Part shown: positions 1-23,035 of the stretch, piece after piece
Position numbering within the stretch: position 1 is the first letter of the stretch
How the letters are laid out: each line of letters opens with the position of its first letter
Position numbers and translations under genes: made by a program
The notes under the pieces: model-generated
Told to the model about the DNA's origin: nothing
The model's database searches: none
The model's input: the letters and a program-made list of their open reading frames with translations, nothing else
NCBI GenBank assembly: GCA_017853115.1
Contig: JAFMKE010000003.1
Coordinates: 1-42,746 of the forward strand
DNA from: Verrucomicrobiota bacterium
GTDB taxonomy: Bacteria; Bacteroidota; Bacteroidia; Chitinophagales; UBA8649
Direction of reading: 5' to 3'
Length of the DNA: 42,746 nt

Positions 1-34
1 TCAATAATCCTTAACTTTACGCAAAACTGAAGGC

Positions 35-2344
35 TTGAATTACTGGTTGCTTTTATTGCCATTTTTCATTCTGATTGTAGGCTATTTCTCTTTTCCATTC
101 TTAATTAGTTATGCCAAGCGCATCAATTATGTGGATGAAGGGACGAGCAGAAAGAGACATCGGGATAATATTCCACCTATAGGTGGTTGGCTTGTTTATT
201 CGGCCTTTGCTCTGACCTTCTTTTTTGCCTTGCTTTTGCCTAATTTTTCTTTTAAAAATTTAGGTGTTTTCCTCAGTGTATCTGGCGTGTTTTTATTAGG
301 AGTAATTGACGACAAGTACCCTATGAATGCCAGTAAAAAGTTCGCTGGTCAGTTTTTGGTTGCTGCGCTTTGTGTATTCTTAGGAGAAGTTCATTTTGCT
401 GAATATATGAGTTTGTATGGCATCCCTTATCTTTTAGGCCAAGTGTTGTGTATGGTCGCTATTGTTTTTGTCATTAACGCTTATAATTTGGTGGATGGAA
501 TTAACGGCTTGGCCGCTATGCTTGGCATAGTTGCTATAGGTTTTTTGAGTTTGTGGCTGTTTAGTGCAGGCTTATTTTCTTATTTTATTCTAGCCTTGAG
601 TGTTATCGCAGCCTTACTTGTATTTCTTCGTTATAATGTATTTCAAACCCTGATTTTCTTGGGTGATAATGGATCCATGATAATCGGCTTACTAGCTACT
701 ATTTTTGCGTTTACATTTATCAAGACCTTTACGGGATTTGACAGCGTGGTTCTTACAAAGTGTAATGCAGAAGTAGGTATTGCCATAGCAGCAATGGCCA
801 TACCCATCGCTGATACCCTGCGATTGTTTTTCCTTCGACCATATTATCTAGCTAAGTCACCATTCAAAGCGGATAGAAACCACGTTCATCATTTGCTTTT
901 GCGCATCGGCTTTAGTCACGCCGAAGCTTCTTTATTACTTTTTGGTTTGTCCATCTTGCTTGTATTGGCCGCATTGGCCGCCCAGGATCTTGGCAGTATA
1001 GCCGTAATATTTATTACTTTTTCTATTTGTGTTGCTTTTCTTATGGCAATTGATTTTCTGGTTTTTAGTCGTTACCGACGAAAAGTAAATAAGAAAACGG
1101 TATTCAATAGCTTGCAAAATGTTTCTCAAGCTCTCGGTAATCCGGTATTCATTGAATACACTTTTGCTATTAGCATGTTCTTACTGGTTATTTCGATTCC
1201 GTTTCACCGGGTTTCCACCAGTATTCCAACCATAATTCTAATTTTCTCCTTTATAGCTTTGAGCATACGTAACCTATTAATCTTTAAAGGAGATTTTATA
1301 ACTAAGATGAAAGGTGAAGTTGCTGCCTTTCTTAAGCATCCGTATACTTGGCTTATTCTAGTTTTCCTTCTTTATACCTTGATACACCTATTCTTTATCC
1401 AAGCTGAAGGAAGGTGGAACAAATGGACAATCTATTTATTACTTTTGGTGTATTGGCTTAGTTTATTCCAATTTGAAAAGATAGTTCAGATTAGACCAAG
1501 GATATTGCTTACGGCTTTTATTGCGGGCTGCCTGGGGTTTGGAATCTATATTTTGATGGAATCCTTTGTGGAGTTTCCAGATAAAGGCTGGAATGGATTT
1601 ACCTACAATGAATTATTGAGCAATGTAAAGGCAAACCCAGTTACGCATTCTTTATACTACAACCTTGCAATATTATTTTTGGGAAACAATTACAAATTTC
1701 TAAAGCGAGAGGAATGGCGAATATCGTATTGGTTAATGCTCGTATTCTTCATTCTTATGGTATTTCTGTGTAGTTCGAAGGTTGGGATATTTATCTTGGC
1801 ACTTTCCTTAAGCAGCGCTATTTACAACATGGTAAGAAATAACAAAACGGCCTGGTTGATAATCGGAGTTATTGGATCGCTTGCCTTGTTAATTGGATTG
1901 CGATTAGGACTCTTTACCCTTGAATATATCCAATTGGCTTTTGATTCGAGGTTGGTGGTCTGGATGGAAACCAAGCAAATTATAGCGCAAAACTTGCTAA
2001 CTGGCGTTGGTGTTGGAAATTCAGTAGAAACCTTGCGTTTGGCTTTTGAGAATATAGACTTTGTTCAAGGCCTAGAACAAGCGTACAATGCACAAAATCA
2101 ATTTTTGGAATCTTTCCTAGAAACCGGCGTATTTGGCTTTTTAATTCTCTGCTTGTTTTTTGTTTATTCCTTGTATAAATCCATCCAAGAGAGGAATAAA
2201 CTCTATTTTGTATACATCCTGGTTGTCGGTATCTACATGATGACTGAGTCACTCTGGCAAACGCAGATGGGAATGGTTTCCTTTGCCTTCTTCAATGCGC
2301 TTTTCTTGGCTTCGTTTTATCACAAAGAGACTATTTCTTCCTAG
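35..2344 (+). CDS. Fusion: MraY/WecA-family polyprenyl-phosphate HexNAc-1-phosphate transferase (approx. aa 1-345) plus O-antigen ligase/Wzy_C-like membrane domain (approx. aa 365-769)
   Basis: N-half has WecA-family motifs (RKRHxxxIPPIGG, GVIDDK, NAYNLVDGINGL, IFLGDNGS, DRNHVHH). C-half is polytopic with Wzy_C-like motifs (SSKVG, RLVVW, LLTGVGVGN, YNAQNQFLESFLETGVFG). TTG start is preceded by a promoter-like TAACTTTA at 12-19. Confidence 0.8.
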   Translation: MNYWLLLLPFFILIVGYFSFPFLISYAKRINYVDEGTSRKRHRDNIPPIGGWLVYSAFALTFFFALLLPNFSFKNLGVFLSVSGVFLLGVIDDKYPMNASKKFAGQFLVAALCVFLGEVHFAEYMSLYGIPYLLGQVLCMVAIVFVINAYNLVDGINGLAAMLGIVAIGFLSLWLFSAGLFSYFILALSVIAALLVFLRYNVFQTLIFLGDNGSMIIGLLATIFAFTFIKTFTGFDSVVLTKCNAEVGIAIAAMAIPIADTLRLFFLRPYYLAKSPFKADRNHVHHLLLRIGFSHAEASLLLFGLSILLVLAALAAQDLGSIAVIFITFSICVAFLMAIDFLVFSRYRRKVNKKTVFNSLQNVSQALGNPVFIEYTFAISMFLLVISIPFHRVSTSIPTIILIFSFIALSIRNLLIFKGDFITKMKGEVAAFLKHPYTWLILVFLLYTLIHLFFIQAEGRWNKWTIYLLLLVYWLSLFQFEKIVQIRPRILLTAFIAGCLGFGIYILMESFVEFPDKGWNGFTYNELLSNVKANPVTHSLYYNLAILFLGNNYKFLKREEWRISYWLMLVFFILMVFLCSSKVGIFILALSLSSAIYNMVRNNKTAWLIIGVIGSLALLIGLRLGLFTLEYIQLAFDSRLVVWMETKQIIAQNLLTGVGVGNSVETLRLAFENIDFVQGLEQAYNAQNQFLESFLETGVFGFLILCLFFVYSLYKSIQERNKLYFVYILVVGIYMMTESLWQTQMGMVSFAFFNALFLASFYHKETISS

Positions 2345-2364
2345 GAAGAACAAAACAAATGTGT

Positions 2365-2997
2365 TCAGAACATATTCTTTCTGCCTATCTCCTTGCAAAT
2401 AGGGCAGATGTGGGGTTTATGTCCACGTGCAGGGCAGTATTCACGACCAAAGAAAATAATTTGAAGGTGGAGCTTGTTCCAAAGTTTCTCAGGAAACAAG
2501 CGTTTGGCATCTTTCTCGGTTTGAACTACATTTTTTCCTGAACTTAGCGTCCATCGATACATTAATCGATGAATATGCGTGTCAACCGGAAAGGCTGGAA
2601 CACCGAATCCCTGACTCATTACTACTGAAGCTGTTTTGTGCCCAACACCCGGTAGTTTTTCAAGCGCTTCAAATGATTGGGGTACTTTTCCTTCATGCTC
2701 TTCCACCAGAATTTTAGAAAGCCCGTATATGCCTTTCGATTTCATTGGGCTCAAGCCACAAGGCCGAATAATTGCTTTAATTTCTTCAACACTTAACTTA
2801 AGCATATCATATGGATTATCTGCTAATGCAAATAAGTGGGGAGTGATTTGATTAACCCGTTCATCGGTACATTGGGCAGACAATAGAACAGCAACAAGTA
2901 AGGTGTAGTTGTCTTTATGATTGAGGGGAACTGGCACTTCAGGGTATGAAGCTTCAAGGGTTCTGATAATGAATTCAACTTTTTCCTTTTTATTCAT
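2365..2997 (-). CDS. nth: Endonuclease III (HhH-GPD DNA glycosylase/AP lyase)
   Basis: LLVAVLLSAQCTD, HhH LPGVGHKTA, FPVDTHIHR, C-terminal Cys cluster. Confidence 0.95.
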   Translation of the reverse strand: MNKKEKVEFIIRTLEASYPEVPVPLNHKDNYTLLVAVLLSAQCTDERVNQITPHLFALADNPYDMLKLSVEEIKAIIRPCGLSPMKSKGIYGLSKILVEEHEGKVPQSFEALEKLPGVGHKTASVVMSQGFGVPAFPVDTHIHRLMYRWTLSSGKNVVQTEKDAKRLFPEKLWNKLHLQIIFFGREYCPARGHKPHICPICKEIGRKNMF

Positions 2998-3165
2998 GGC
3001 CTAAAAATAAAGTTTTTGTTTGAGGTGATATAGACGAAATGTCTAAACCACTAATTTTCCAAGTACTTTGAGCGTGTTCACTTTCATTACACATTTCAGT
3101 TTAAATCTGCCTGGTTACTGTTACACCAAGCAAAGTCATTTGAGTTGAAATCCTGAAATTTTTCG

Positions 3166-3173
3166 TAACTTTG
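3166..3173 (+). promoter_or_regulatory. Bacteroidota housekeeping promoter -7 element (TAACTTTG) for hppD
   Basis: Exact TAnnTTTG match 25 nt before the ATG; TTTG at 3139-3142 and TTG at 3145-3147 are possible -33 elements. Confidence 0.65.
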
Positions 3174-3198
3174 GGGGATTACTGAAATCAACAAAACT

Positions 3199-4332
3199 AT
3201 GGAAAGAACTGTTTCTAAAAATCAAGATAAATTAGTAGATGCGCCAGATTTTTTACCCCTCTTAGGTACTGATCATGTCGAGATATATTGTGGCAACGCC
3301 AAGCAGTCTGCTTTTTATTATCAGTCTGCTTTCGGGTTTAATTTAGTGGCTTATTCAGGTTTAGAAACGGGTAATAAAGAACAAACTTCTTATGTTTTAC
3401 AACAGGAAAAGTTGCGTATTGTGCTTACCTCCGCCTTAACGCCAGAAAGTCCCATTAATGCCCATTTGGCTAAGCACGGAGATGGAGTAAAATATTTAGC
3501 TTTATGGGTTGATGATGCAACACAAAGCTGGAAGGAAACTACTTCGCGCGGAGCTATAAGTGTTCTGGAACCAACAGTAATGAAAGATGAGTTTGGTGAA
3601 GTGGTGGTTTCAGCTATCCAGACCTATGGTGATACTGTCCACAAGTTTGTTGAGCGTAAAAATTATACTGGTGCGTTTATGCCAGGGTTCATAGCCAAGT
3701 CCTCAACCATGGAGGTTAAGCCGATAGGTTTGCAATATATCGACCACTGTGTAGGGAATGTAGAGTTAGGTAAAATGAACCATTGGGTGAAGTTTTATGA
3801 GGAGGTGATGGGTTTTGGATTATTGTTGACTTTCGACGATAAGGATATTTCAACGGAGTATACTGCTTTGATGAGTAAGGTGGTAAGTAATGGAAATGGG
3901 TATGTTAAGTTCCCAATAAATGAACCAGCGAAAGGAAGAAAAAAATCTCAGATTGAGGAATACATAGACTTTTATCAAGGTGCTGGTGTGCAGCATATCG
4001 CGGTGGCTACAAAGGATATTATTTTTACCGTTGGCGAGTTGAGAAAGAGAGGGGTGGATTTCTTAGAAGTGCCAGCCACTTACTATGATGATTTGATTGA
4101 CCGAGTAGGAGAGATTAAGGAGGATCTCGAGATACTAAAAGATTTGAATATTTTGGTTGACCGGGATGATGAAGGATACTTACTTCAGATATTTACGAAA
4201 CCTGTTCAGGACAGACCAACATTATTCTTTGAAATTATTCAGCGAGAAGGCGCGCAGTCCTTTGGAAAAGGCAACTTTAAAGCCTTGTTTGAAGCAATAG
4301 AAAGAGAACAGGCCAGTAGAGGTACACTATAA
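3199..4332 (+). CDS. hppD: 4-hydroxyphenylpyruvate dioxygenase
   Basis: IDHCVGN, GAGVQHIA, YLLQIFTKP, FFEIIQR, FGKGNFKALFEAIEREQ (Fe-binding His/His/Glu). Confidence 0.96.
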   Translation: MERTVSKNQDKLVDAPDFLPLLGTDHVEIYCGNAKQSAFYYQSAFGFNLVAYSGLETGNKEQTSYVLQQEKLRIVLTSALTPESPINAHLAKHGDGVKYLALWVDDATQSWKETTSRGAISVLEPTVMKDEFGEVVVSAIQTYGDTVHKFVERKNYTGAFMPGFIAKSSTMEVKPIGLQYIDHCVGNVELGKMNHWVKFYEEVMGFGLLLTFDDKDISTEYTALMSKVVSNGNGYVKFPINEPAKGRKKSQIEEYIDFYQGAGVQHIAVATKDIIFTVGELRKRGVDFLEVPATYYDDLIDRVGEIKEDLEILKDLNILVDRDDEGYLLQIFTKPVQDRPTLFFEIIQREGAQSFGKGNFKALFEAIEREQASRGTL

Positions 4333-5460: not shown

Positions 5461-7488
5461 TTAGTTTTTCACCAGTTTAAACGGATAATTTTGCCCTGCA
5501 GTTCGAATGTGTAAGAAATAGATTCCAGGTGCTAAATCCCCATAATTTAGGATGGAAACTTGCTCCTCAATCTTGCTCTCAGAGAGCAATTGTCCTTTCA
5601 AGTCATATAAGGAAACTACTACCTTTTCTCCCGAAAACTCTTTCAATTCGAGAACTAATCCCTCGTTCAGATAACTAAATCCATAGGTGTTAAACAGCTT
5701 AGGCTTATTAGAGTCCTTATATTCTCGAACGCCACTGTAAAAATCATTGCAAGTCCCTTCAACAAATTTTCGCTCCAGCAATATGTTAAATATGCTACAA
5801 GTATGAACGCCATTAAACAAAAGGGTATCAGCTAGGAATAGATTAAAGGCGGCTTGCGTAAGACTCGAATTGGGCATATTATAATACATGACTTCAATGG
5901 CCAATTGATCTGCAACCGTTGCTCCTAAATCTAAGTACAAGTCGTTGAGAACCGCCGACCAAATCTCTCCGTTAAAGTAAATATTCTGATTCGAGGAGAG
6001 GTCTAGTTTTGTTTTGTTTGAATTACTGATTCTTCCTGCCCAGAATTCATTGTGACCGTCCCACGAAAAGACTTTGTTCGCCTCAAAATTATCATACTGC
6101 CTAGAGTAAGTGGTGGCTAGGTAGTCCCCAAATCCTTCGTCCAAAGCTCTTCGCTCGTCACCGCTATTGGTTTCTGGCGAAGCAAAGGCACTTATTGCAT
6201 GACCATATTCGTGTATAATCACGTCTGCATCTTCCGCATCATCTACACCTCCTTCGCCAAAAACCAATCGAGGAGGGCTCGTTGGGGTAAAGAATGAATT
6301 GTCTGCCCCATTGTTACCATGAGCATCTACCAAAATGACTTCCGATGCTAAATTGGTAAAACCTAAGCTTTCCCAGTAGCGTTTGAAATTATTGAGGTGG
6401 TAGAAGGCATTAACATCTTCAAATTCTGTCAAATTTCGTGTGAAATCAAAGCTGTCCGTGGCACTATTCGCCGGATTGGTGAAGGGCAGGCTGAATTCAC
6501 TAATTATAAAATCAGCATTGACGAGATTGAAGCTACCGCCTGAAAAATCTACGGGTAACTCACCCCATACTTGCTCTTGTGCAAGGCTTGGGTAATTATA
6601 ATCTTCAATAATTATCTCAGTAGTATAGTTACTAAGGTCTTCTGTAATGGCTGTATTGAAACCTAAAATGTTTCCATTGCCATCCAAAAATATATTTTCA
6701 AACACTTGTTGTATAATTGGTGCAGAGAAATTATTTATATAACTTTCTGTTGGTACGTTGAAGGTTAAACCGTCATAGCTAAAGTTGATTCCATTAGCTG
6801 TAATCGTAGTATTTCCAGTATTATTCAGGTTTTGAATCACTAAGGCAGTTGTGTCGAAGCGCAAGGCATCTTGATAAGTTCCGCCATACAATACATTCGC
6901 GCTTGTCAAGGGATCGGGCTGAAAAACTTTTGCATACGCTGTTGTGTCGTTGTGGTATTTAAGGATATTTTCGAAATAAACTTCGTCATTTATCCAAAAT
7001 CGATGGGCGTAATAATCTTTTTCCTCTTGAATACCTAGTTCTTTTCGAACCAACTTCATTGTGTCGTCAAGAAGAATGTAGCAGAGATTTTCATCAGATT
7101 CATTCGAGTTGAAATGAATAGTATTCCATTCTTCTAGCAGCGGTAGGGTAGTTTGCAACAAACGAGGATGATTATTAAAATCAAGTAAAATCTTGACTAA
7201 AACTTGTTCTATTGGATAAGTGCCATAGCGGCATTGAAAAGTATAATTGACACCACCAAGACTTTGTTTTTCGTATAATAAGGCGAGTTCAAGATTTTGA
7301 TAGTCTTTGAAAAAATCATCGACAAAGTCTTGCACGGATTCTACGCGCACAGAATTACTTACATCTTGCGGCTTGTTTTTGAAAGGAAGGATATACGGCC
7401 CCATATCTTGAGCAATGCTTAATTCGCCCAAAGTGCATAGCACAATCATCAAGAAAAATGACTTGATATGTTGAAAATCACCACTCAT
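5461..7488 (-). CDS. Secreted zinc metallopeptidase (M36/M4 gluzincin-like) with T9SS type-A C-terminal sorting domain
   Basis: Signal peptide, propeptide-like region, DAEDADVIIHEYGH (HExxH at 6199-6213), third ligand in EGFGD, GEIWS; C-terminal 'LYDLKGQ...LAPGIYFLHI...KLVKN' CTD. Confidence 0.85.
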   Translation of the reverse strand: MSGDFQHIKSFFLMIVLCTLGELSIAQDMGPYILPFKNKPQDVSNSVRVESVQDFVDDFFKDYQNLELALLYEKQSLGGVNYTFQCRYGTYPIEQVLVKILLDFNNHPRLLQTTLPLLEEWNTIHFNSNESDENLCYILLDDTMKLVRKELGIQEEKDYYAHRFWINDEVYFENILKYHNDTTAYAKVFQPDPLTSANVLYGGTYQDALRFDTTALVIQNLNNTGNTTITANGINFSYDGLTFNVPTESYINNFSAPIIQQVFENIFLDGNGNILGFNTAITEDLSNYTTEIIIEDYNYPSLAQEQVWGELPVDFSGGSFNLVNADFIISEFSLPFTNPANSATDSFDFTRNLTEFEDVNAFYHLNNFKRYWESLGFTNLASEVILVDAHGNNGADNSFFTPTSPPRLVFGEGGVDDAEDADVIIHEYGHAISAFASPETNSGDERRALDEGFGDYLATTYSRQYDNFEANKVFSWDGHNEFWAGRISNSNKTKLDLSSNQNIYFNGEIWSAVLNDLYLDLGATVADQLAIEVMYYNMPNSSLTQAAFNLFLADTLLFNGVHTCSIFNILLERKFVEGTCNDFYSGVREYKDSNKPKLFNTYGFSYLNEGLVLELKEFSGEKVVVSLYDLKGQLLSESKIEEQVSILNYGDLAPGIYFLHIRTAGQNYPFKLVKN

Positions 7489-10102: not shown

Positions 10103-12082
10103 TTGAAATACAATACCAAAAATATATCAAAGGAAAGGCAAATCGCTTTGTACCGGGATATGCTTTTTTCTCGCATGATTGAGGAGAAGATGCTCAAATT
10201 ATTGCGTCAAGGTAAGATCTCCAAATGGTTTAGTGGTATCGGTCAAGAAGGTATTGCTGTTGGAGTTACCTCAGCCTTGGAAGCCGATGAGTATATCCTG
10301 CCAATGCACAGAAATCTGGGTGTTTTTACGACGCGAAAAATCCCATTTTCTAAGTTGTTTCAACAGTGGCAAGGAAAGAAAAATGGTTTTACGAAAGGGC
10401 GTGATCGAAGCTTCCATTTTGGTACAAACGATTATCATATTGTAGGAATGATTTCACATTTGGGCCCTCAGTTGAATGTAGGTGATGGCATCGCATTAGC
10501 ATCTAAATTAAAAGCTGAAAAAAAAGTAACGGTTGCGTTTACTGGTGAAGGGGCAACAAGTGAGGGCGATTTTCACGAAGCCTTAAATATTGCTGCAGTA
10601 TGGGATTTGCCCATCATTTTTGTAATTGAAAATAATGGGTATGGCTTATCTACCCCTACTCAGGAGCAATATCGCTGTGAACGGCTCTCTGATCGTGGAG
10701 TGGGTTATGGAATACAAGCTTTAACCATAGACGGAAACAATATTGTGGAAGTGTATGAAACGATTCGAAAACATGCTGAATCCATTCGTGAAAATCCACA
10801 TCCCGTATTGATAGAATGCGAAACCTTTAGAATGCGGGGTCACGAGGAGGCTTCTGGCACAAAGTACGTGCCTGATGAGTTGTTTGAAGAGTGGGGGAAG
10901 AAAGATCCTTTACTAAACTTTGAATCTTATTTGCTTGATAAAGGGCATCTTTCAACCGAAGACATTGATAACTTCAAAACAGCAATGACCTCAGAGATTG
11001 AGGAGGGACTTGAAGAAGCATTTAATGCGCAAGATGTTATTCCGAATGTTGCAGAAGAACTCGCAGATGTCTACAAAGCTTTTTCACCCGCGTTAATTAC
11101 GCCAGTAAATGATAAAAGCAGCATTAAGCGGATGGTAGATGCTTATTCTGATGGTTTAAGACAAAGTATGCAGCGTTTCGAAAACCTAGTAATCATGGGG
11201 CAAGATATTGCTGAGTACGGAGGTGTATTTAAAATTACAGAAGGATTTGTTAATGAGTTTGGGCGAGAACGTGTGCGAAATACCCCAATATGTGAATCGG
11301 GTATATTGAGCGCAGCTCTGGGCTTAAGTATAAAAGGGATGAAGGCTGTCGTAGAGTTGCAGTTCGCTGATTTTGTTACTTCAGGATTTAATCCGATAAT
11401 CAATAACTTAGCTAAATCCCATTACCGGTGGGGACAAGCAGCTGATGTTACTTTACGCATGCCGACGGGAGCAGGAGTTGGTGCTGGACCCTATCATTCA
11501 CAGAGTAATGAGGCGTGGTTTTATCATACGCCTGGATTAAAAATCGTTTATCCGAGCAATGCGTATGATGCGAAGGGCCTATTGGCTGCTGCTATAGAAG
11601 ACCCTAATCCCGTTATGGTGTTTGAACACAAGGCACTTTATCGAAGCGTTGAAGGCGAAGTTCCAGAAGATTATTACACCGAACAGATTGGCAAGGCGAA
11701 AACTGTCCGAAGTGGTCACGATATTAGTATTATTACCTATGGATATGGTGTAATCTGGGCAGAACAACTCGCGGAGAAGAACAGTAATTATAGTATAGAC
11801 ATACTTGATTTACGTTCTCTGGTTCCCATGGATTTTGAAGCTATTCGTCTAAGTGTTAAACGCACGGGAAAGGTAATTGTGCTTAATGAGGATTGCTTAA
11901 CAGGCAGCATAGCCTCAGATGTGGCCGCTTGGATTGGTGAAAATTGTTTTGAGTTTCTCGATGCACCTGTTCGCAGAGTAGGAAGCTTGGATACTCCGGT
12001 ACCTTTCGCTAAAGCTTTAGAGAATCAATTCTTACCTCCGGAAAGATTAGACGAGGTATTCCACGATTTGCTTGCTTATTAG
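10103..12082 (+). CDS. Fused E1 alpha/beta 2-oxoacid dehydrogenase (probably branched-chain 2-oxoisovalerate dehydrogenase)
   Basis: TPP motif GEGATSEGDFHE...ENN, FRMRGHEE, beta-part GQDIAEYGGVF, NTPICE, GPYHSQ; start is likely TTG 10103 (ORF track gives 10055). Confidence 0.9.
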   Translation: MKYNTKNISKERQIALYRDMLFSRMIEEKMLKLLRQGKISKWFSGIGQEGIAVGVTSALEADEYILPMHRNLGVFTTRKIPFSKLFQQWQGKKNGFTKGRDRSFHFGTNDYHIVGMISHLGPQLNVGDGIALASKLKAEKKVTVAFTGEGATSEGDFHEALNIAAVWDLPIIFVIENNGYGLSTPTQEQYRCERLSDRGVGYGIQALTIDGNNIVEVYETIRKHAESIRENPHPVLIECETFRMRGHEEASGTKYVPDELFEEWGKKDPLLNFESYLLDKGHLSTEDIDNFKTAMTSEIEEGLEEAFNAQDVIPNVAEELADVYKAFSPALITPVNDKSSIKRMVDAYSDGLRQSMQRFENLVIMGQDIAEYGGVFKITEGFVNEFGRERVRNTPICESGILSAALGLSIKGMKAVVELQFADFVTSGFNPIINNLAKSHYRWGQAADVTLRMPTGAGVGAGPYHSQSNEAWFYHTPGLKIVYPSNAYDAKGLLAAAIEDPNPVMVFEHKALYRSVEGEVPEDYYTEQIGKAKTVRSGHDISIITYGYGVIWAEQLAEKNSNYSIDILDLRSLVPMDFEAIRLSVKRTGKVIVLNEDCLTGSIASDVAAWIGENCFEFLDAPVRRVGSLDTPVPFAKALENQFLPPERLDEVFHDLLAY

Positions 12083-12843
12083 TCTTGATCGCGATTAGCA
12101 AGTACCTCTTCGTAGTGCTTAACATATGTAGGATTTTCAGTGCCCATCAGTCGGTCCCAGAATCTAAAGTATAAGCCATAGTTTCCCTTGAAATACTGGT
12201 GGTGCATATTGTGATGCACCGAGGTGTTTAAAACTTCAAATAGTTTGGTTTGTCGAAACCATTTTGGCATGATTTCATAACCAAGATGCCCGTACACATT
12301 GATTAACAAACTGCTTGTGGTAAATGCAAGTATCGCGTAGAGGTGAATAGGCATGATAAAAATCAGGATTAAAATGATTAGGGCCTCCAAAACCGATTCT
12401 CCTGCATGGAAGGCGAATGAGGCGAAAGGCGATGGGTTAGTGGATAGATGGTGTGTCTTGTGCATGCGGCTATAGAAAGGCTCAATGTGCAGGAAACGGT
12501 GCATCCAATAAAAATAGGTGTCATGTATAATGAGGGCTAGTATCACACTAACAGGCAAATACCATAAGGGGAAATCATCGATGTCTTGATACATTTGAGA
12601 GTATTTCGCCAATGGCCCAAACTCTACAAACAAGGCGATGGCTACAAATATCAAATTGGTGACTACTGAATAGAAGATTTCTCTCCGAAAATCAATCCCT
12701 TTGGCCTGCTTCTGTTGGATTTTATGTTTCTGAAAAGTCTTCTGAAAAACGATGTAAAAGAAGCTAAATGCAATACCTGCAAACAAAAAGTAGCGAAGTA
12801 GAAACATCGTGGCCAACTTCATACCAAGAAGAAAACTGTCCAT
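12079..12843 (-). CDS. Sterol desaturase/fatty acid hydroxylase family protein
   Basis: His boxes HRFLH, HKTHH, HHNMHH; GNYG..FWDRLMGT. Confidence 0.9.
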   Translation of the reverse strand: MDSFLLGMKLATMFLLRYFLFAGIAFSFFYIVFQKTFQKHKIQQKQAKGIDFRREIFYSVVTNLIFVAIALFVEFGPLAKYSQMYQDIDDFPLWYLPVSVILALIIHDTYFYWMHRFLHIEPFYSRMHKTHHLSTNPSPFASFAFHAGESVLEALIILILIFIMPIHLYAILAFTTSSLLINVYGHLGYEIMPKWFRQTKLFEVLNTSVHHNMHHQYFKGNYGLYFRFWDRLMGTENPTYVKHYEEVLANRDQD

Positions 12844-12888
12844 GTAAATCGATTTAGAACGAAAGTTAGAAAATGATATCGGTAAATC

Positions 12889-13641
12889 TTAGTCTTTAAC
12901 TTTGTATAACAGAATGTTGCTTGGACTCGCATCCATAGCCAAGGGTAAGGTTTGAATATTTACGATATACAGGCCATCTTGAATATCGTCTGGAGCATAA
13001 ATCATTTCCGTAATGGTGGCATCAAGCCTTGGCAAGTCACTGGGGTAGTTCCAAAATGCTTTGTGCGCTAATAATTTACCTTCATCTTCTTCCCGATCCA
13101 CGGAGGGTGTATCAATCATGAAATGTTCAATACCTTTTTTTACTAAGAATTCCATCGCTTCATAGCGGATGTAGCATGGATTAGTGCCACTCCAGTCTTT
13201 AATTTTGTCTTCCGGTTGGTTTGGCAAAGTTCGAATCATTAGGCAGTTTACAGATTCGGCGAAATGGATTGCTTGCACTTGTTCAAGTGAAATAAAATAG
13301 TCATCCTTCAACTTTTCCGGATCAATAGTGATTAATTGACCTAGTTGATGGGTGTTTGTCAGACAGTCTTTAATCAGATAAGGTTCAACTGCTATGTGTC
13401 CAAGGCATTCTGTATGGGTTCCATTGCCATGAGGATTGATAAAAATATTTTTAAAATTTAAGATTCCTCCTTCAGTGGTGCTGCCTACCCAATTGTCCAT
13501 TCTAACGGGTTCGATATCTAGTTGAGGAGAATAAAAGGCCCTTGGCAAGTGGTTTTTTCCATAAAATGGGGTTGAAATTGACCGGCCTTCATTTAAATTA
13601 ATTTCGTATTCTTTTCCTGCTATTTCTATGCTTGCTTTCAT
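12889..13641 (-). CDS. Cyclase-family metal-dependent hydrolase (kynurenine formamidase-like)
   Basis: HGNGTHTE, IDTPSVD, DASP motifs. Confidence 0.85.
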   Translation of the reverse strand: MKASIEIAGKEYEINLNEGRSISTPFYGKNHLPRAFYSPQLDIEPVRMDNWVGSTTEGGILNFKNIFINPHGNGTHTECLGHIAVEPYLIKDCLTNTHQLGQLITIDPEKLKDDYFISLEQVQAIHFAESVNCLMIRTLPNQPEDKIKDWSGTNPCYIRYEAMEFLVKKGIEHFMIDTPSVDREEDEGKLLAHKAFWNYPSDLPRLDATITEMIYAPDDIQDGLYIVNIQTLPLAMDASPSNILLYKVKD

Positions 13642-14768
13642 CGTTTAGTTTCTTCATTAATTTCAAAGAAATGGGCAGCAATTCCGTCTGCGTAAAACAA
13701 TCCTTCTTCGCTAAGTGTGATAATAGATTCTTCCTGATTGAACATTTCTGTATCTAGGTCTTTAAGCTTACTTTCAAATGTAGGGTAAAAATTCGGAAAC
13801 ACGTTTTCAATCTGTTCGGTGCTTATTCCCCACTTTGTTCTCAATCCAGTCATAATATACTCGTTGTATTGGTCTTGTAAACTTAGATGCTCAATTTCGA
13901 TTTGATTTGCCTTCTTGTCGATATATCCCTTCAAGTTAGGCTTGTTCCATTGGCGACTTTTTCCATTAAAGGAATGCGCACCAGGGCCTAAACCAAGATA
14001 CCATTCTCCTTTCCAGTAGGATGTATTGTGCTTGGAAATTTTCTCGTTTTTACACAGATTAGATATTTCATAGTGGTCCCAGTTTAGATCCTTTGCCCAT
14101 GAACGGAGCATTTTGAAATTTTCAGCGGCTAGTTTGTCATTTACTTTAGCCACTTGTCCTTTTCTGATTTGATGGAATAATGCCGTTCCTTCTTCTACAG
14201 TTAGCGCATAGCAAGAGAGATGTTGCACTTGTAGATCGGCAGCCGTGTTTAAATTGTCTTCCCATGCTTGTTTGGAAAGCGTTGGCGTTCCATAGATTAA
14301 ATCAATCGAGATATTGTCTAATCCAATATCCTGAGCTGACTGTATCGAGTTAAGGGCTTCTTGAGCATTATGCGCTCTGCGCATGAACTGCAAATCCCTA
14401 TCTTGAAATGATTGAGTGCCAATACTCAACCTATTGATCCCACTTTTCCTTAAATCCTTCAGTTTTACTTTGCTCAGGTCATCGGGGTTAGCTTCGAGGG
14501 TGATTTCTGGCACTGAGTCAAGTATATAATGCTTATTTATGACATTGAGAATTTCTTCTATGGTATGGGCCTCCAAAATAGATGGCGTTCCTCCCCCAAA
14601 ATAGATGCTTTCAATCGTTTGATTGCTCAAATAATTTTTGCGTGCTGGAATCTCTTCGAGTATGCGTTCAACAAAAGCTTCTTTAAAGTGAAGTGATGTA
14701 CTAAAGTAAAAATTGCAATAATTGCAGGCTTGTTTACAAAAAGGGATATGAAGGTATATGCCTGCCAT
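13638..14768 (-). CDS. hemW: Radical SAM heme chaperone HemW (HemN-like)
   Basis: YLHIPFCKQACNYCNF, YFGGGTPS, YEISN, HNxxYW; start moved to ATG 14768 (MAGIYLHIPF). Confidence 0.9.
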   Translation of the reverse strand: MAGIYLHIPFCKQACNYCNFYFSTSLHFKEAFVERILEEIPARKNYLSNQTIESIYFGGGTPSILEAHTIEEILNVINKHYILDSVPEITLEANPDDLSKVKLKDLRKSGINRLSIGTQSFQDRDLQFMRRAHNAQEALNSIQSAQDIGLDNISIDLIYGTPTLSKQAWEDNLNTAADLQVQHLSCYALTVEEGTALFHQIRKGQVAKVNDKLAAENFKMLRSWAKDLNWDHYEISNLCKNEKISKHNTSYWKGEWYLGLGPGAHSFNGKSRQWNKPNLKGYIDKKANQIEIEHLSLQDQYNEYIMTGLRTKWGISTEQIENVFPNFYPTFESKLKDLDTEMFNQEESIITLSEEGLFYADGIAAHFFEINEETKR

Positions 14769-14781
14769 CAATTCTATTGCG

Positions 14782-14789
14782 TACTTTTG
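14782..14789 (+). promoter_or_regulatory. -7 promoter element TACTTTTG for the Omp85-DUF4271 unit
   Basis: Exact consensus in the 56-bp divergent gap, 35 nt before TTG 14825. Confidence 0.5.
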
Positions 14790-14824
14790 AAAATAAATTG
14801 TAAAGTAAAGGGTTTTATTCATAC

Positions 14825-16597
14825 TTGAGACAGAAATTGTTATATATCGTGGCCCTGTGCCTTTGGGCAAATCTTTTGTTTGCTCAAACATCGGTTGAAC
14901 TAGAAGTTTTATATGCTGATAGCCAAGCCTTGGATAAAAAGTATCACTTAGCAGAGAGCTTCAAGAGTGTACTTCAGTTGAATGCATCACTAGAAGATTT
15001 AATTCACCAGCTTAAAAAAGATGGTTATCTAACAGCCTCAGTGGATAAATTGGGCTGTGATAGCGCTATGACAAAGTGTGTTGCAACACTATTTGTTGGC
15101 CAAAAATATTCAATTGAATCTATAGAGAATGGCAATATAGAGGATGTCGTATGGAAAAAGTTGGGTTTGCATAAGCTACAGCCGGGTGTCGATTTAAGTC
15201 GACTCGAGTATATTCAAGCTAGTATACTGAATTACTACGAAAATAACGGATTCCCGTATGCGCAAGTTTGGGTGGATTCATTGGCTTTGCAGGATGGCAA
15301 GGGAAGTATGCACTTATTCGTTGAACCTAATGACTTGATTACCGTGGATAGTTTGGTAGTGCATGGAAACACGAAGACAAAGTCTAAGTTTTTGCAACGA
15401 TATTTAGGTATAGAGTCGGGCGATTTGTTTAGCCAAGGTAAATTCGATGCAATTGAGCAGAAGTTAAAACAACTTCCTTATTTCCGAAGCGCACAAACTC
15501 CTGAAATATATTTCACTCCGGGTGAAGCTACGCTTCATGTTTTTTTGGAGAAGCAACGAAGCAATCAGTTTAATTTGATTCTTGGCGTGTTGCCGAATAG
15601 TGAGTTGGGTGACAAAAAGTTGACAATTACAGGAGAAGGTAAACTTCAGCTTCTTAATTCTTTTGGTGTAGGAGAGGAGATTTATGCTGAGTTTCGTCAG
15701 CTTAAGCCCAGAACACAAAATTTGGATATCGCCTTTACTTATCCTTATTTTTTAAACTCGCCTATTGGAGTTTACGGTTCATTCAATCTGTATAAAAATG
15801 ATAGTTTGTTCATCGATGTGAACACGGAAGTTGGTATCCTTTACCAGTTTGGGGGATTTAACCGATTAAAATTTTTCTATGACAATCAGAGTTCAAATAT
15901 TTTGAATGTCGATACCCTTTCTATTAAAAATAGTGGCGTTTTACCTACAACTTTGGATATAAGAAACAACATCTACGGTATTGCGCTCGAACTGCAACAA
16001 CTCGATTACGTTTTAAATCCAAGAAGGGGCTTTCAATTGCATCTCAGCGGTGGAGTGGGCTTGAATCGAATAAGGGTGAATCAGAGCATAGCTACCTTGA
16101 TTGCTTTTGATGGAAATCCACTGCAGTTCCAATATGATTCATTACCATTAAAGAGGCTCAACTACTCTTTAGCTTTGAATGTTTCCCAGTTTATTCCGAT
16201 TCGTAAAAAGAGTACATTGTTGCTACGAAATCAATCCAAGTTTTATGTCGCAAAAAATATATTGGAAAATGAGAAGTATCGAATTGGAGGTTATCGGATG
16301 TTAAGAGGGTTCGATGAAGAGGCAATTTATACTCCATTCTATTCTATCTTTACCACAGAGTTTAGGTTGCTGTTGTCGCAAAATTCTTATTTCAACTTAT
16401 TTACGGATGTGGGAATTGTGGAAGACGAACAGAAGGGCTCGGGCAATATAGATATTCCTGTTGGTTTTGGTGTCGGTGTTGCTCTTGAAACGAGAGGAGG
16501 TATTTTTAGTTTGAGCTATGCCTTAGGAAGGAATTTGGATAATAAAATTCAAGTTAGAAATGGAAAAATACATTTTGGATTTGTCAGTTTGTTTTAA
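14825..16597 (+). CDS. Omp85 (BamA/TamA) family outer-membrane protein
   Basis: Signal peptide, POTRA-like GYL/GFP motifs, barrel starting LNSFGVGE, IGG..LRGF lid motif, C-terminal Phe. Confidence 0.85.
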   Translation: MRQKLLYIVALCLWANLLFAQTSVELEVLYADSQALDKKYHLAESFKSVLQLNASLEDLIHQLKKDGYLTASVDKLGCDSAMTKCVATLFVGQKYSIESIENGNIEDVVWKKLGLHKLQPGVDLSRLEYIQASILNYYENNGFPYAQVWVDSLALQDGKGSMHLFVEPNDLITVDSLVVHGNTKTKSKFLQRYLGIESGDLFSQGKFDAIEQKLKQLPYFRSAQTPEIYFTPGEATLHVFLEKQRSNQFNLILGVLPNSELGDKKLTITGEGKLQLLNSFGVGEEIYAEFRQLKPRTQNLDIAFTYPYFLNSPIGVYGSFNLYKNDSLFIDVNTEVGILYQFGGFNRLKFFYDNQSSNILNVDTLSIKNSGVLPTTLDIRNNIYGIALELQQLDYVLNPRRGFQLHLSGGVGLNRIRVNQSIATLIAFDGNPLQFQYDSLPLKRLNYSLALNVSQFIPIRKKSTLLLRNQSKFYVAKNILENEKYRIGGYRMLRGFDEEAIYTPFYSIFTTEFRLLLSQNSYFNLFTDVGIVEDEQKGSGNIDIPVGFGVGVALETRGGIFSLSYALGRNLDNKIQVRNGKIHFGFVSLF

Positions 16598-18241: not shown

Positions 18242-19213
18242 TTGATGCGCTTAACTTTATTCGCTTTATTTCTTTTTGTCAATTCGCAAGCATTTGCTCA
18301 GCAATGGGTCCAATTTACCCAAGCCAATGCTTATGGTTCTTTCTTGAATCCCGGGCATATTGGATATCAAAGCAACTTAAATGCCACTGCTGCGCACAGA
18401 AGTCAGTATGTTGGTTTGGGTACCCGAGCCATTGGCACTCAATTTGTTTCTTTTAGTTCGCCCTTTCTTAGTTCCAAATTTGGACTGGGTTTTAGATTGC
18501 TTAATGATTTCATTGGTGTCCAACGATTTACGCATATAGATTTGGGCGGCGCTTATCATTTTATGCAGGGTAAACATCGATTGTCTGCTGGATTTCAGCT
18601 GGGGATAGTTCAGCTAAGTATAAATGGCGCTGAGCTAACTGCTCCTGATGGAAGCTATTCGTCTGGGGTAGTCGTCCACAATGATCAAGTCCTTCCTCAA
18701 GAATCTTCATCTGGTTTGGCCCCTACCATTAGTGCAGGATTGCTATATGGTTATAAAAAATTTGAAGTGGGTGTTTCAATGCAGCATGTAAGTTCTCCAC
18801 AAATTGAGCTCTCCAATACGGCGAATGGAACATTAATAATTTTATCGCGTACAATAAATTTATATTCGTCTTACGTTATAGAGGCGAATAACGTGAAAGT
18901 TAAACCAACGTTCTTTAGTAAAACAGACTTCAAGGAATGGCAAGCACAGATGAACCTAGAAATTGATTGGCGTAAGTTGATTGTTGGTGCGGGTTTTAGA
19001 GGTTATAGTGGCTTGAATAACGACGCTATAATTGGTTTGTTTGGATTCCGAGTGAAAGAAAAGATTCGATTGGTGTATAGCTATGATTACAATGTTTCTT
19101 TTTTGAATAATTCGAATTCAGGTTCTCATGAGCTTAGTTTGAGGTTTGATTTACCAAAAAGTTTTAAACAAACCGTAAAAAGTAATAAAATTTTTAACCC
19201 AAGATATTTATAA
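18242..19213 (+). CDS. porP: PorP/SprF family T9SS beta-barrel protein
   Basis: QFTQ..LNPG..HRSQ, YSYD, GSHE, C-terminal PRYL; directly upstream of gldK. Confidence 0.88.
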   Translation: MMRLTLFALFLFVNSQAFAQQWVQFTQANAYGSFLNPGHIGYQSNLNATAAHRSQYVGLGTRAIGTQFVSFSSPFLSSKFGLGFRLLNDFIGVQRFTHIDLGGAYHFMQGKHRLSAGFQLGIVQLSINGAELTAPDGSYSSGVVVHNDQVLPQESSSGLAPTISAGLLYGYKKFEVGVSMQHVSSPQIELSNTANGTLIILSRTINLYSSYVIEANNVKVKPTFFSKTDFKEWQAQMNLEIDWRKLIVGAGFRGYSGLNNDAIIGLFGFRVKEKIRLVYSYDYNVSFLNNSNSGSHELSLRFDLPKSFKQTVKSNKIFNPRYL

Positions 19214-19303
19214 AAAAATATTACTTTAGCGCGGTGATTGTTTTGCTTTTTATCAAAGAGTATTATATTTACACGCTTTAAAATTGCTATTAAAAGACAA
19301 AGT

Positions 19304-20563
19304 ATGATGAAGTTTCAATCTTTAGCCCTAACAATTCTTTCTTTTGGAGTTTTGATTTTATCAGGATGTGGGGGAAGTTACAATGGCCAACTTCTTGGAG
19401 AGTTAGATAGGCCCAATTGGCAGCCAGAAATGCCTTATGGTATGGTGTACGTGCCTACAGGTTTTTTACATATTGGACCATCAGACCAAGATGTAAATCA
19501 TGCCTTGTTGGCTCAAAGTAAGTCGATTTCAATAGCAGGCTTCTTTATGGATGATACGGAGATAACAAATAATGAATATCGTCAGTTCGAGCACTGGGTG
19601 CGCGATTCAGTAGCTCACAAGTTGTTGGGTAACATCATTGTAGATGAAGAATCTGGCTTAGAGCGAATTGACTGGAGTATCGACATCGATTGGGAGGATA
19701 CTGAGACTAAAGAACTTTTAGCGAGTATGGTTTATCCGAAAGATGATCCATTGGGTGGAGGTCTTAATACTACGAAGTTGATTTACGAATATGTTTGGGT
19801 TGATTGGCAAACAGCGGCTAAAGAGCCTAATATTGAAAGAGAAGATTTGGCTATGCAAGAAGAAGTTGAGATTTATCCAGATACCTTAGTTTGGATTCGT
19901 GATTTTTCTTATTCTTACAACGAACCATTCGCAAGAAACTATTACAACCATCCTGCTTTTGATGATTATCCAGTTGTTGGTATTACATGGGATCAAGCGA
20001 ACGCTTTTTCAGCGTGGAGAACTGGATTCTACAATGGCTTCAAAAAACAACAAGGTTTGTCGGTATTAGATGATTTCCGTATCCCAGTAGAACATGAGTG
20101 GGAATATGCTGCGAGAGGAGGTAAAAAACAATCTCCTTATCCGTGGGGTGGTCCATACATCAGAAACAGTCAGGGTTGTTTGTTGGCTAACTTTAAGCCA
20201 GGAAGAGGAAACTACCCGGAGGATGGCGGTTTGTACACCGTGCGTGCTGATGCATACTGGCCGAATGATTACGGTTTGTATAACATGGCTGGAAATGTGG
20301 CTGAATGGACGTCTTCAGCATTTTATGAAAACTCTTACAATTTTATTCATGATCTTAACCCTGATATTCGATACGATGCGAATGACAGTGAGCCAAATAC
20401 CATGAAGCGTAAGGTGTTGAGAGGTGGTTCGTGGAAAGATATAGGATATTATATTCAAACAGGTACACGTCACTGGGAGTATTCTTTTGAAGCGAAAAGC
20501 TACATCGGATTTAGATGTGTTTCTACTTACTTAGGTAGAGATTATAGAGATGCTTCATATTAA
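19304..20563 (+). CDS. gldK: Gliding motility/T9SS lipoprotein GldK (PorK)
   Basis: Lipobox LSGC, PYGMVYVPTG, TEITNNEYRQF, YPDTLVW, EWEYAARGG, NMAGNVAEW; start moved to ATG 19304. Confidence 0.93.
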   Translation: MMKFQSLALTILSFGVLILSGCGGSYNGQLLGELDRPNWQPEMPYGMVYVPTGFLHIGPSDQDVNHALLAQSKSISIAGFFMDDTEITNNEYRQFEHWVRDSVAHKLLGNIIVDEESGLERIDWSIDIDWEDTETKELLASMVYPKDDPLGGGLNTTKLIYEYVWVDWQTAAKEPNIEREDLAMQEEVEIYPDTLVWIRDFSYSYNEPFARNYYNHPAFDDYPVVGITWDQANAFSAWRTGFYNGFKKQQGLSVLDDFRIPVEHEWEYAARGGKKQSPYPWGGPYIRNSQGCLLANFKPGRGNYPEDGGLYTVRADAYWPNDYGLYNMAGNVAEWTSSAFYENSYNFIHDLNPDIRYDANDSEPNTMKRKVLRGGSWKDIGYYIQTGTRHWEYSFEAKSYIGFRCVSTYLGRDYRDASY

Positions 20564-20647
20564 ATTTGAATTTTATATACTATTTATTTAATAAGTTAAT
20601 CGAAGATTAACCCTAAAGACTATTATTAAAAACTAAAAAAAACTAAA

Positions 20648-21283
20648 ATGGCAAAATCACAATCATTCTTTTTAAGTAAGTCAGGTAAAACATATCTTAA
20701 CTACGCATATTCGATAGGTGCGGCAGTTGTTATTGCGGGTGCGTTGTTTAAGTTGATGCACTGGCCATTCGCAAGTTTAATGCTAATTGTAGGTATGAGT
20801 ACGGAGGTGTTGATTTTTATTATTTCTGCTTTTGAACCTCAATTTGAGCATCATGATGAATACAAATGGGAGCGAGTATATCCTGAATTGGCGGATGATG
20901 AGTTAGGCTCGAAATCGATTACAAAGAGTTTAGATGATATGTTAGCCCAAGCTAATATTGAGCAGGAAATGCTTTCTCGCATTGGAGAAAACTTAGGTAA
21001 GTTAAGCACGAATGTGGCTAGCTTAAATGATATGGGAGATGCCATGTCTGCAACGCAAGATTATACCACCAACGCAAGAGCTGCAGCGAACGCGTTAGGT
21101 GAAGTTAAGGATGCTTACACGGCGGCTTTATCATCAGCAGATGGATTAGCTAGTACGCTAGATACAATGAAAGCAATTTCAGAATCAACTTCGGCAGTTC
21201 AAGCGGAAATGACAGAGTTATCATCAAATTTATCATCGTTAAATACTGTATACGGAAATATGCTTTCAGCAATGAAAAGCTAA
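20648..21283 (+). CDS. gldL: T9SS/gliding motor subunit GldL (PorL)
   Basis: GAAVVIAGALFKLMHW, TE..F..SAFEP, WERVYPEL, LNTVYGNMLSAM. Confidence 0.95.
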   Translation: MAKSQSFFLSKSGKTYLNYAYSIGAAVVIAGALFKLMHWPFASLMLIVGMSTEVLIFIISAFEPQFEHHDEYKWERVYPELADDELGSKSITKSLDDMLAQANIEQEMLSRIGENLGKLSTNVASLNDMGDAMSATQDYTTNARAAANALGEVKDAYTAALSSADGLASTLDTMKAISESTSAVQAEMTELSSNLSSLNTVYGNMLSAMKS

Positions 21284-21336
21284 GAGGCAGTTTATTTAAG
21301 TAATCAAATTCCTAAACCGATTAAAAATAGATTATA

Positions 21337-22977: not shown

Positions 22978-23035
22978 CTTTCAATACTATTAAATCAAAG
23001 ATTAACGTTATTACGCAAGTTGTAAAACAAGAATT

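Follow-up and report, generated by a model that had tools for sequence, protein, structure and literature searches.

The assembly of undecaprenyl-linked glycans begins on one face of the membrane and ends on the other, and its first and last membrane steps compete for a lipid carrier that is in short supply. This raises the question of what a protein does that combines, in a single chain, relatives of the enzymes for both steps. Such a protein is encoded in a stretch of 42,746 nt from a genome deposited as Verrucomicrobiota bacterium and placed by GTDB in the order Chitinophagales of the Bacteroidota (assembly GCA_017853115.1, contig JAFMKE010000003.1, positions 1 to 42,746). This whole stretch is hereafter called the window, and features in it lie on the forward strand unless a minus sign is given. 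The gene in question (35..2344) specifies 769 residues, of which the N-terminal half resembles the WecA/MraY-type transferases and the C-terminal half the O-antigen ligase WaaL. The original prediction, which was made from the letters of the window, had suggested that the product could be a compact prime-and-transfer machine. Here, we describe evidence that the gene is real, that its N-terminal half is predicted to be an intact initiating transferase and that its C-terminal half has lost a histidine that is one of the defining features of the WaaL ligases.

One gene for two membrane domains

The open reading frame (ORF) consists of 769 uninterrupted codons (35..2344) that start with TTG (35..37) and end with the stop codon TAG (2342..2344). 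The start codon is invariant in 7/7 orthologues of the genus, and the homologues begin with MNYW or MSY at the same place. Moreover, an in-frame TAA is located upstream at 5-7; thus, the N-terminus is complete, although the window begins at the end of a contig (C104 of a fragmented metagenome-assembled genome of 2.07 Mb, 203 contigs and 95.7% completeness). Two Pfam domains score above their cut-offs, which are Glycos_transf_4 (PF00953; residues 77-227, 92.5 bits with a cut-off of 27) and Wzy_C (PF04932; residues 568-705, 40.9 bits with a cut-off of 31.7). A hydropathy scan places about 11 membrane helices before and 12 behind a linker with the residues SRYRRKVNKK. The description of the gene as one 769-codon frame with a WecA-like and a Wzy_C/WaaL-like part is thus confirmed.

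When 40 relatives were searched, each of the 6 further genomes of the genus proved to have the frame at full length (7/7 with the source genome). Furthermore, 31 clusters (P0002-P0032) among 54 matches of a protein search have both Pfam families, with lengths of 738-804 aa and identities of 40-98%. The clusters come from several sources, and one of them, which is 98% identical, has 42 member sequences. DNA contigs from two other sequencing runs span 1-2029 and 233-1194 with 0 indels, and both cross the junction between the halves (nt 1050-1150), where a check had been proposed, without a stop codon. A contig of 150 nt from an RNA library covers 1045-1194 and has 0 differences from the window; the RNA-library contigs cover parts of the gene and are no proof of its transcription. 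Taken together, 35..2344 is one real gene for an inner-membrane protein of 769 residues and about 23 helices.

The gene is preceded by the promoter-like motif TAACTTTAC (12..20), which is located 15-23 nt 5' of the start codon. Within the sequence TAnCTTT at 12-18, the positions T12, A13, C15, T16, T17 and T18 are invariant in 7/7 upstream regions of the genus. This candidate promoter element resembles TAnnTTTG, the -7 element of the Bacteroidota.

The WecA-like half

The N-half (35..1066; residues 1-344, about 11 transmembrane (TM) helices) is predicted to be an intact polyprenyl-phosphate N-acetylhexosamine (HexNAc)-1-phosphate transferase. It has the hallmarks of the PNPT superfamily, that is, a PF00953 match above the cut-off, the motifs of the cytoplasmic loops and the MraY/DPAGT1 fold with 10-11 TM helices. 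The NCBIfam model of WecA, TIGR02380 (ECA_wecA), aligns end-to-end with residues 11-337 and reaches 118.9 bits, well below its cut-off of 326.05. Four conserved blocks were found in the fused proteins, of which 21 were aligned. The Asp92-Asp93 motif (308..313) is invariant in 21/21 proteins. The same applies to N148, N151, L152, D154, G155, N157, G158 and L159 in the motif N148-AYNLVDGINGL-159 (476..511), to F208, L209, G210, D211, G213 and S214 in the motif F208-LGDNGS-214 (656..676) and to H283, H285 and H286 in the motif H283-V-H285-H286 of the last large cytoplasmic loop (881..892). The first three blocks (D92-D93, N148-L159 and F208-S214) align with the matching motifs of MraY (4j72), in which the third reads FMGDxGS. 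From work on WecA and MraY, Asp92-Asp93 presumably has a role in Mg2+ binding and catalysis. H283-x-H285-H286 resembles the HIHH loop of E. coli WecA, with a presumed role in recognising the sugar nucleotide, and the motifs DD, NxxNxxDGxxGL and (I/V)F(L/M)GDxGS of the cytoplasmic loops are presumed to contain the catalytic residues of the PNPT enzymes. At the level of structure, Foldseek matched the full-length AlphaFold model to chains of MraY and human DPAGT1 (TMt 0.57-0.76, probability 1.00). The genome also encodes MraY and a second, stand-alone WecA-like gene.

The WaaL-like half and its lost histidine

The C-half (1142..2341; residues 370-769) is a domain of 12 helices with the WaaL fold (Wzy_C, GT-C_B). 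A separate model of residues 351-769 has a mean predicted local distance difference test (pLDDT) score of 79.2 and a predicted template modelling (pTM) score of 0.83. With VIA-align, it was matched to WaaL of Cupriavidus metallidurans (7tpj_B) with Z 27.7 and a root-mean-square deviation of 4.1 Å over 367/403 residues; the next structure matches are RodA and FtsW with Z 12.1-12.7. Foldseek retrieved 7tpg_B at E 2.3e-4, and the family profile finds 7tpg_B by sequence (E 4.4e-8). Thus, the C-half has the features of the Wzy_C/GT-C_B superfamily: its PF04932 match exceeds the cut-off, and it shows the 12-helix fold in which a periplasmic loop precedes the final three helices. Neither a Wzy_C-type polymerase nor PglL was among the structure matches, and the fold match can therefore not separate a ligase from a polymerase.

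Three conserved residues of the C-half are of particular relevance. Lys582 (1778..1780) is aligned with Arg191 of C. metallidurans WaaL in the hidden Markov model alignment, where lysine is a conservative replacement. It is nearly invariant across the fused family and common to its paralogues, and other Wzy_C proteins have K or R at this position. Arg639 (1949..1951), which is aligned with WaaL Arg265, and Glu738 of the E-S-L motif (2246..2248) are both invariant (21/21 and 10/10). In WaaL, R191 and R265 presumably bind undecaprenyl pyrophosphate (Und-PP).

The arginine that a WaaL ligase has at the R265 position is thus present (Arg639), whereas the histidine at the H313 position is replaced by Gln687 (CAA; 2093..2095) within the N-A-H-N-Q-F motif; the catalytic histidine of PglL/PglS is lost in the same way. 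In the clade of the window's genus, the proteins of the alignment have glutamine (9/10) or leucine (1/10) at position 687. In contrast, a histidine is present in 10/10 proteins of the sister fused clade (P0022-P0032) and also in P0058, G021, G093, P0059 and a stand-alone paralogue from the same genome as the window. It is also kept in 12 of the 13 other Wzy_C-superfamily proteins that were aligned, the exception being a member of PF13425. In the article PMC12800693, this histidine is termed the proposed catalytic residue of WaaL, the residues H324 and E379 of PglS are described and the PglS variant H324A is reported to be inactive.

The histidine is not the only loss. Compared with the sister clade and the stand-alone paralogue, the periplasmic loop (1913..2116; residues 627-694) is shortened by about 18 residues. 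The residues missing from the genus clade would be located just before Arg639, and they include one conserved histidine. In the tree of the C-halves, the His-bearing fused forms (21 rows, support 97) enclose the Gln clade (10 rows, support 100), which argues that the loss of the histidine is derived. Three unsaturated genome pairs yielded ratios of nonsynonymous to synonymous substitution rates (dN/dS) of 0.06-0.12 for the N-half, 0.11-0.13 for the C-half and 0.19 for the loop.

The position of Glu742, which is glutamine in the genus clade, had been considered as a second lost catalytic residue. It lies 55 residues after the histidine position, and this is also the spacing of H324 and E379 in PglS. 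Since the His-bearing relatives have different residues here (E, G, N, S), the candidate was not retained.

The linker and the arrangement of the halves

The two halves are connected by a Lys/Arg-rich linker (1067..1141; residues 345-369), which is predicted to be cytoplasmic. It begins with SRYRRKVNKK (residues 345-354, nt 1067-1096), and in the main fused clade a [KR]-rich sequence ending in KKT[VM]FN is conserved. The full-length AlphaFold model has a mean pLDDT of 80.8, with values below 50 for the linker residues 348-370, and its overall pTM of 0.76 is the only hint of packing between the halves. The C-terminus of WecA and the N-terminus of WaaL are both cytoplasmic. A cytoplasmic linker fits these topologies, and the active regions of the halves would lie on either side of the membrane, just like those of the separate enzymes WecA and WaaL.

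Genomic context

In the window's genus, the fused gene is an orphan among housekeeping genes. The 9 kb upstream of the gene could be compared for four loci, one of which is 98% identical to the window. Their upstream neighbours are the same, namely genes for RpoA, L17, CarA, enolase and Lgt, two thioredoxin-type genes, a GldC-like gene and a gene for an aldo/keto reductase; endonuclease III is encoded downstream. The housekeeping context was found in 4/4 genus loci and extends across 40 kb downstream in the window, in which 0 of 36 further ORFs match a glycan-assembly family, just as had been noted before. Neither in these loci nor in the window was a glycosyltransferase, a flippase, an acceptor-related gene or a gene for the core of the lipopolysaccharide (LPS) detected near the fused gene.

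The His-bearing forms have other neighbours, which could be inspected for one sister-clade locus (G093) and five loci of a third group of fused forms; among the latter, the G176 contig is too short to judge. In G093, the genes for Wzx, a 449-aa polymerase-like protein and two GT1 enzymes are followed by a stand-alone Wzy_C gene and then by the fusion. The 449-aa protein is a weak match to the repeat-unit polymerase model TIGR04370 (35 bits with a cut-off of 40). The fusion of G021 is encoded near an UpxY-like NusG gene and genes for a methyltransferase, Wzx and a UDP-GlcNAc 2-epimerase, that of G185 near GFO/IDH/MocA and UDP-sugar dehydrogenase genes, that of G167 near genes for Wzx, two hexapeptide transferases and an epimerase/dehydratase, and that of G118 near a Bac_transf gene. 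No related loci were found in metagenome contigs searched with P0022, and a search with the profile of the fused proteins (A1, built from the 21 sequences mentioned above) retrieved only fused loci of the genus clade and stand-alone WecA genes.

Unfused relatives of both halves also occur next to each other. In G007, a cluster with genes for Wzx, a pyruvyl transferase, O-antigen_lig (PF13425), GT1 and WecG ends with a Wzy_C gene and, immediately behind it, a wecA-like gene. In G026, genes for WecG, an epimerase, a WecA-like protein and a Wzy_C protein are located on one 6-kb contig. It was considered whether the window's genus might likewise make a glycan primed with GlcNAc-ManNAc(A). This idea was dropped because WecG and UDP-GlcNAc 2-epimerase were not found in the source genome (95.7% complete).

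Further genes of the window deserve mention. At 18242-23851 (+), it encodes PorP/SprF, an FGE-sulfatase-domain protein that is GldK-like by position, GldL, GldM and GldN in a row, a core block of type IX secretion and gliding. A 675-aa protein with a weak match to fungalysin (M36) and an HEYGHA motif is encoded at 5464-7488 (-) and may be secreted. Co-directional genes for a fatty acid hydroxylase family protein, a putative cyclase and a radical SAM protein are located at 12082-14891 (-).

Distribution of the fusion

When a sample of 401 genomes from the order, including the source genome, was scanned with the profile A1, at least 13 of them, from three GTDB families, were found to have the fused gene. 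In the window's genus (g1), all genomes (G000-G006, 7/7) have a complete copy, and in the family f26 this applies to G093 (1/18 genomes); no copy is cut by a contig end in either group. In the family f7, the copies of G021, G176 and G185 are complete and those of G118 and G167 are truncated where the contig stops. Within the window's own family, the remaining genera (9 genomes) have only split forms. Every fused form of the order scan lay beyond E 1e-97, and 0 proteins reached this value with the fused profile when 400 genomes, sampled evenly from the rest of the phylum, were scanned. In an exhaustive search of representatives, only 3 of the best 150 proteins match over the full length (P0014, P0029 and P0058). 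Searches for longer proteins with the C-half and with the C-half alignment retrieved only the same fused family and one Wzy_C protein of 897 aa, which is weak evidence against other fused forms, and a search of the ESM Atlas gave nothing beyond generic Wzy_C clusters. More distant, independent fusions of Glycos_transf_4 and Wzy_C are possible elsewhere. In the titles and abstracts that were searched, which excluded most subscription journals, no WecA-WaaL or Glycos_transf_4-Wzy_C fusion is described. The architecture, which is built from two known kinds of proteins, is thus rare, conserved and apparently undescribed. None of the outcomes that had been named as speaking against the original prediction occurred, as the relatives are not all split, the C-half is Wzy_C-like and the architecture was found to be neither common nor characterised.

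As regards the habitat, 14/24 listed runs contain at least half of the sampled words of the gene, and these are labelled as freshwater, estuary or seawater metagenomes. The taxon labels conflict within one genus-level group, in which L021 is designated Flavobacteriaceae bacterium and L022-L024 Chitinophagales bacterium.

Glycos_transf_4 is also fused to other domains, namely UDP-GlcNAc 2-epimerase (P0035, P0039 and P0041), GT2 (P0106), NTP_transf_5 (P0157) and CrcB (P0165). The second WecA-like gene of the source genome (L029, G000:C158, 7316-8429 (-), incomplete at the contig end) has a CrcB gene immediately behind it; hence, the pair of a WecA-like gene and CrcB recurs, once adjacent and once fused.

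Origin of the fusion and a stand-alone paralogue

The fusion probably arose in Wzx/Wzy-type surface-glycan gene clusters of Chitinophagales, because fused relatives are located in or beside such clusters and unfused relatives have adjacent wecA-like and Wzy_C genes. In the trees of both halves, the f7 group is set apart from the main fused clade by stand-alone proteins. A single clade of all fused N-halves is not rejected by the approximately unbiased test (p 0.40), and both one and two fusion events are possible. In the N-half tree, no stand-alone gene is closer to the main fused clade than that of G007 (support 92; not starred).

The stand-alone paralogue of the C-half in the source genome (L028, G000:C175, 882-2216 (-)) encodes 444 aa, is about 30% identical and keeps the histidine. 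Its cluster comprises two GT2 genes, Wzx and a Wzz-like gene. In this protein, the conserved IPF[HY]RVSTSIPT motif is preceded by an additional hydrophobic helix at the N-terminus and by a polar linker, and the profile matches start inside the last helix of the WecA half (profile positions 300-329). As judged from these sequence features, the start of the paralogue could be the trace of a fission from a fused ancestor. The same cluster encodes, at 2304-3494 (+) of L028, a polytopic membrane protein of 396 aa without a match in Pfam or NCBIfam, which is a candidate novel polymerase.

What the fused protein may do

For the His-bearing relatives, we propose that both halves serve one Wzx/Wzy-type pathway. 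The N-half would probably start an Und-PP-linked glycan at the cytoplasmic face, and the protein would then probably handle the finished lipid-linked glycan at the periplasmic face, either by ligation or by polymerisation. In the window's genus, the gene would have left the glycan cluster, and the WaaL-like half lost the histidine (Gln687) and about 18 residues of the loop. Here, priming of undecaprenyl phosphate with HexNAc-1-phosphate is most likely still carried out by the N-half, and the C-half would more probably be a structural or regulatory module or one that binds Und-PP or an Und-PP-linked glycan. We put about even trust in this reading as a whole, according to which the N-half still primes the carrier and the C-half is no standard ligase and has probably been kept for binding or for a structural or regulatory role. 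The C-half is most likely not a canonical ligase because the histidine and a part of the loop are lost; yet it is under purifying selection and has kept Lys582 and Arg639. With respect to the prime-and-transfer machine that had been envisaged, the derivation of both halves from one pathway is supported by the glycan-cluster contexts, whereas the transfer step is weakened by the Gln or Leu at the H313 position in the window's clade. The channelling or recycling of the carrier that formed part of this idea may occur, with LPS, A-LPS or proteins as putative acceptors.

Several points weigh against the reading that we favour. Glutamine can donate hydrogen bonds and Glu738 might serve as an alternative base, so that the C-half could be catalytic after all, and strong purifying selection on this half is also expected of an active enzyme. 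The link between keeping the histidine and being located in a glycan cluster rests on few loci. Moreover, R191, R265 and H313 are presumed key residues of WaaL, among which H313 is the proposed catalytic histidine of PMC12800693. As for the N-half, the TIGR02380 score marks it as WecA-like and as no WecA equivalog, with UDP-GlcNAc as a possible donor and Und-PP-GlcNAc as a possible product. The lack of matches for WecG and the 2-epimerase mentioned above bears on its partner pathway.

An alternative, which we regard as unlikely but worth serious consideration, is that both halves are active, in which case the N-half would prime undecaprenyl phosphate and the C-half would be a ligase or O-oligosaccharyltransferase that moves the flipped and perhaps very short glycan onto lipid A-core or proteins by means of a residue other than the lost histidine. 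This would be the prime-and-transfer enzyme of the original prediction. The conservation of the whole WaaL fold and of K582, R639 and E738, the low dN/dS of the C-half (0.11-0.13) and the His-bearing fused relatives in glycan clusters would all be in line with such an activity. The separate polymerase-like protein of G093 (35 bits against 40 for TIGR04370) would even leave a ligase-type role for the Wzy_C protein. However, the position aligned with H313 is Gln in 9/10 and Leu in 1/10 proteins, so a non-polar residue is tolerated, the deletion of about 18 loop residues has removed a conserved histidine, and the genus has no glycosyltransferase, flippase or acceptor-related gene near the fusion. 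Furthermore, the equivalent exchange of His to Ala inactivates PglS, as reported in PMC12800693.

It appears improbable that the C-half is a Wzy-type repeat-unit polymerase that was fused to the transferase starting the same repeat unit. Pfam Wzy_C includes polymerases as well as ligases, between which the structure match to WaaL cannot distinguish, and the gene of the paralogue in the source genome has Wzx and a Wzz-like gene for chain length in its cluster. However, the 396-aa polytopic protein without a family match could be the polymerase of that cluster, and in G093 the fusion is already accompanied by a candidate polymerase that is TIGR04370-like and by a further Wzy_C protein. The loss of the histidine, which is kept in all PF04932 proteins that were compared, whatever their role, also speaks against standard catalysis.

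A more specific proposal is that the C-half is a pseudo-ligase that binds Und-PP or an Und-PP-linked glycan outside and either feeds the carrier back to the WecA half or reports the state of the carrier; we consider this a rather doubtful idea. If true, the pseudo-ligase would be a built-in recycling or feedback device that couples the release of the carrier outside to its re-priming inside.

Finally, the notion that the long frame is an artefact, either because faulty assembly or sequencing merged two adjacent genes or because of a recent accidental read-through without function, could be raised because the genome is in 203 contigs and the gene begins 34 nt from a contig end, but it has next to no probability and is refuted as far as the present data reach by the open frame in 7/7 genus genomes, 31 clusters and three GTDB families, by the indel-free contigs of other runs, by the conserved linker and by the purifying selection on both halves.

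As a natural single-chain fusion, the protein offers a direct handle on how the first and the last step of undecaprenyl-linked glycan assembly are coordinated. The His-bearing proteins from glycan clusters and the conserved His-less ones are natural variants that can be compared for activity, carrier binding and structure. In addition, the fusion draws attention to a member of the WaaL family that is likely to be a pseudo-enzyme. If the halves simply act independently, the protein would be an ordinary Rosetta-stone fusion that confirms the functional link of WecA-like and Wzy_C genes.

Comparison with known systems

The fused protein belongs to two superfamilies, PNPT and Wzy_C/GT-C_B, and it is not filed as a WaaL ligase because one defining feature, the histidine, is lost. 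The N-half resembles E. coli WecA (Rfe) and the TagO-type enzymes in the alignment over residues 11-337, in the DD, NxxNxxDGxxGL, FLGDxGS and HxHH motifs and in its approximately 11 TM helices, and its fold is that of MraY (4J72) and human DPAGT1 (6BW5). Unlike the enterobacterial WecA, of which it is no orthologue (118.9 versus 326 bits), the protein has a WaaL-like domain of 400 residues at its C-terminus.

This domain shares the Pfam family Wzy_C and the 12-helix GT-C_B fold with WaaL of C. metallidurans (7TPG/7TPJ) and E. coli; Arg639 is aligned with R265 and Lys582 with R191. It differs from WaaL by an identity of only 13%, by Gln687 in place of H313, by the shorter periplasmic loop, by the fused transferase and by the lack of LPS-core genes nearby. 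PglL and PglS are members of the same superfamily and have the N-A-(H)-N-Q-F motif with an invariant Glu about 50 residues later; for PglS, H324 and E379 are described in PMC12800693. In contrast to these O-oligosaccharyltransferases, the fused protein has lost the histidine and has no extra periplasmic C-terminal domain, and a candidate acceptor protein was not identified.

The closest counterparts are the His-bearing fused relatives (P0022-P0032 and G093; P0058, G021, G176 and G185), with which the protein of the window shares the domain order, the position of the linker and 27-44% identity. Unlike the window's protein, they keep the histidine, the P0022 group keeps the longer loop, and where the context is readable they are encoded in or beside glycan clusters. 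As in other Glycos_transf_4 fusions, an initiating transferase is combined with another enzyme of sugar or envelope metabolism. However, among the fusions seen, the WaaL-like partner is the sole periplasm-facing GT-C enzyme and the only one that would work across the membrane from the transferase.

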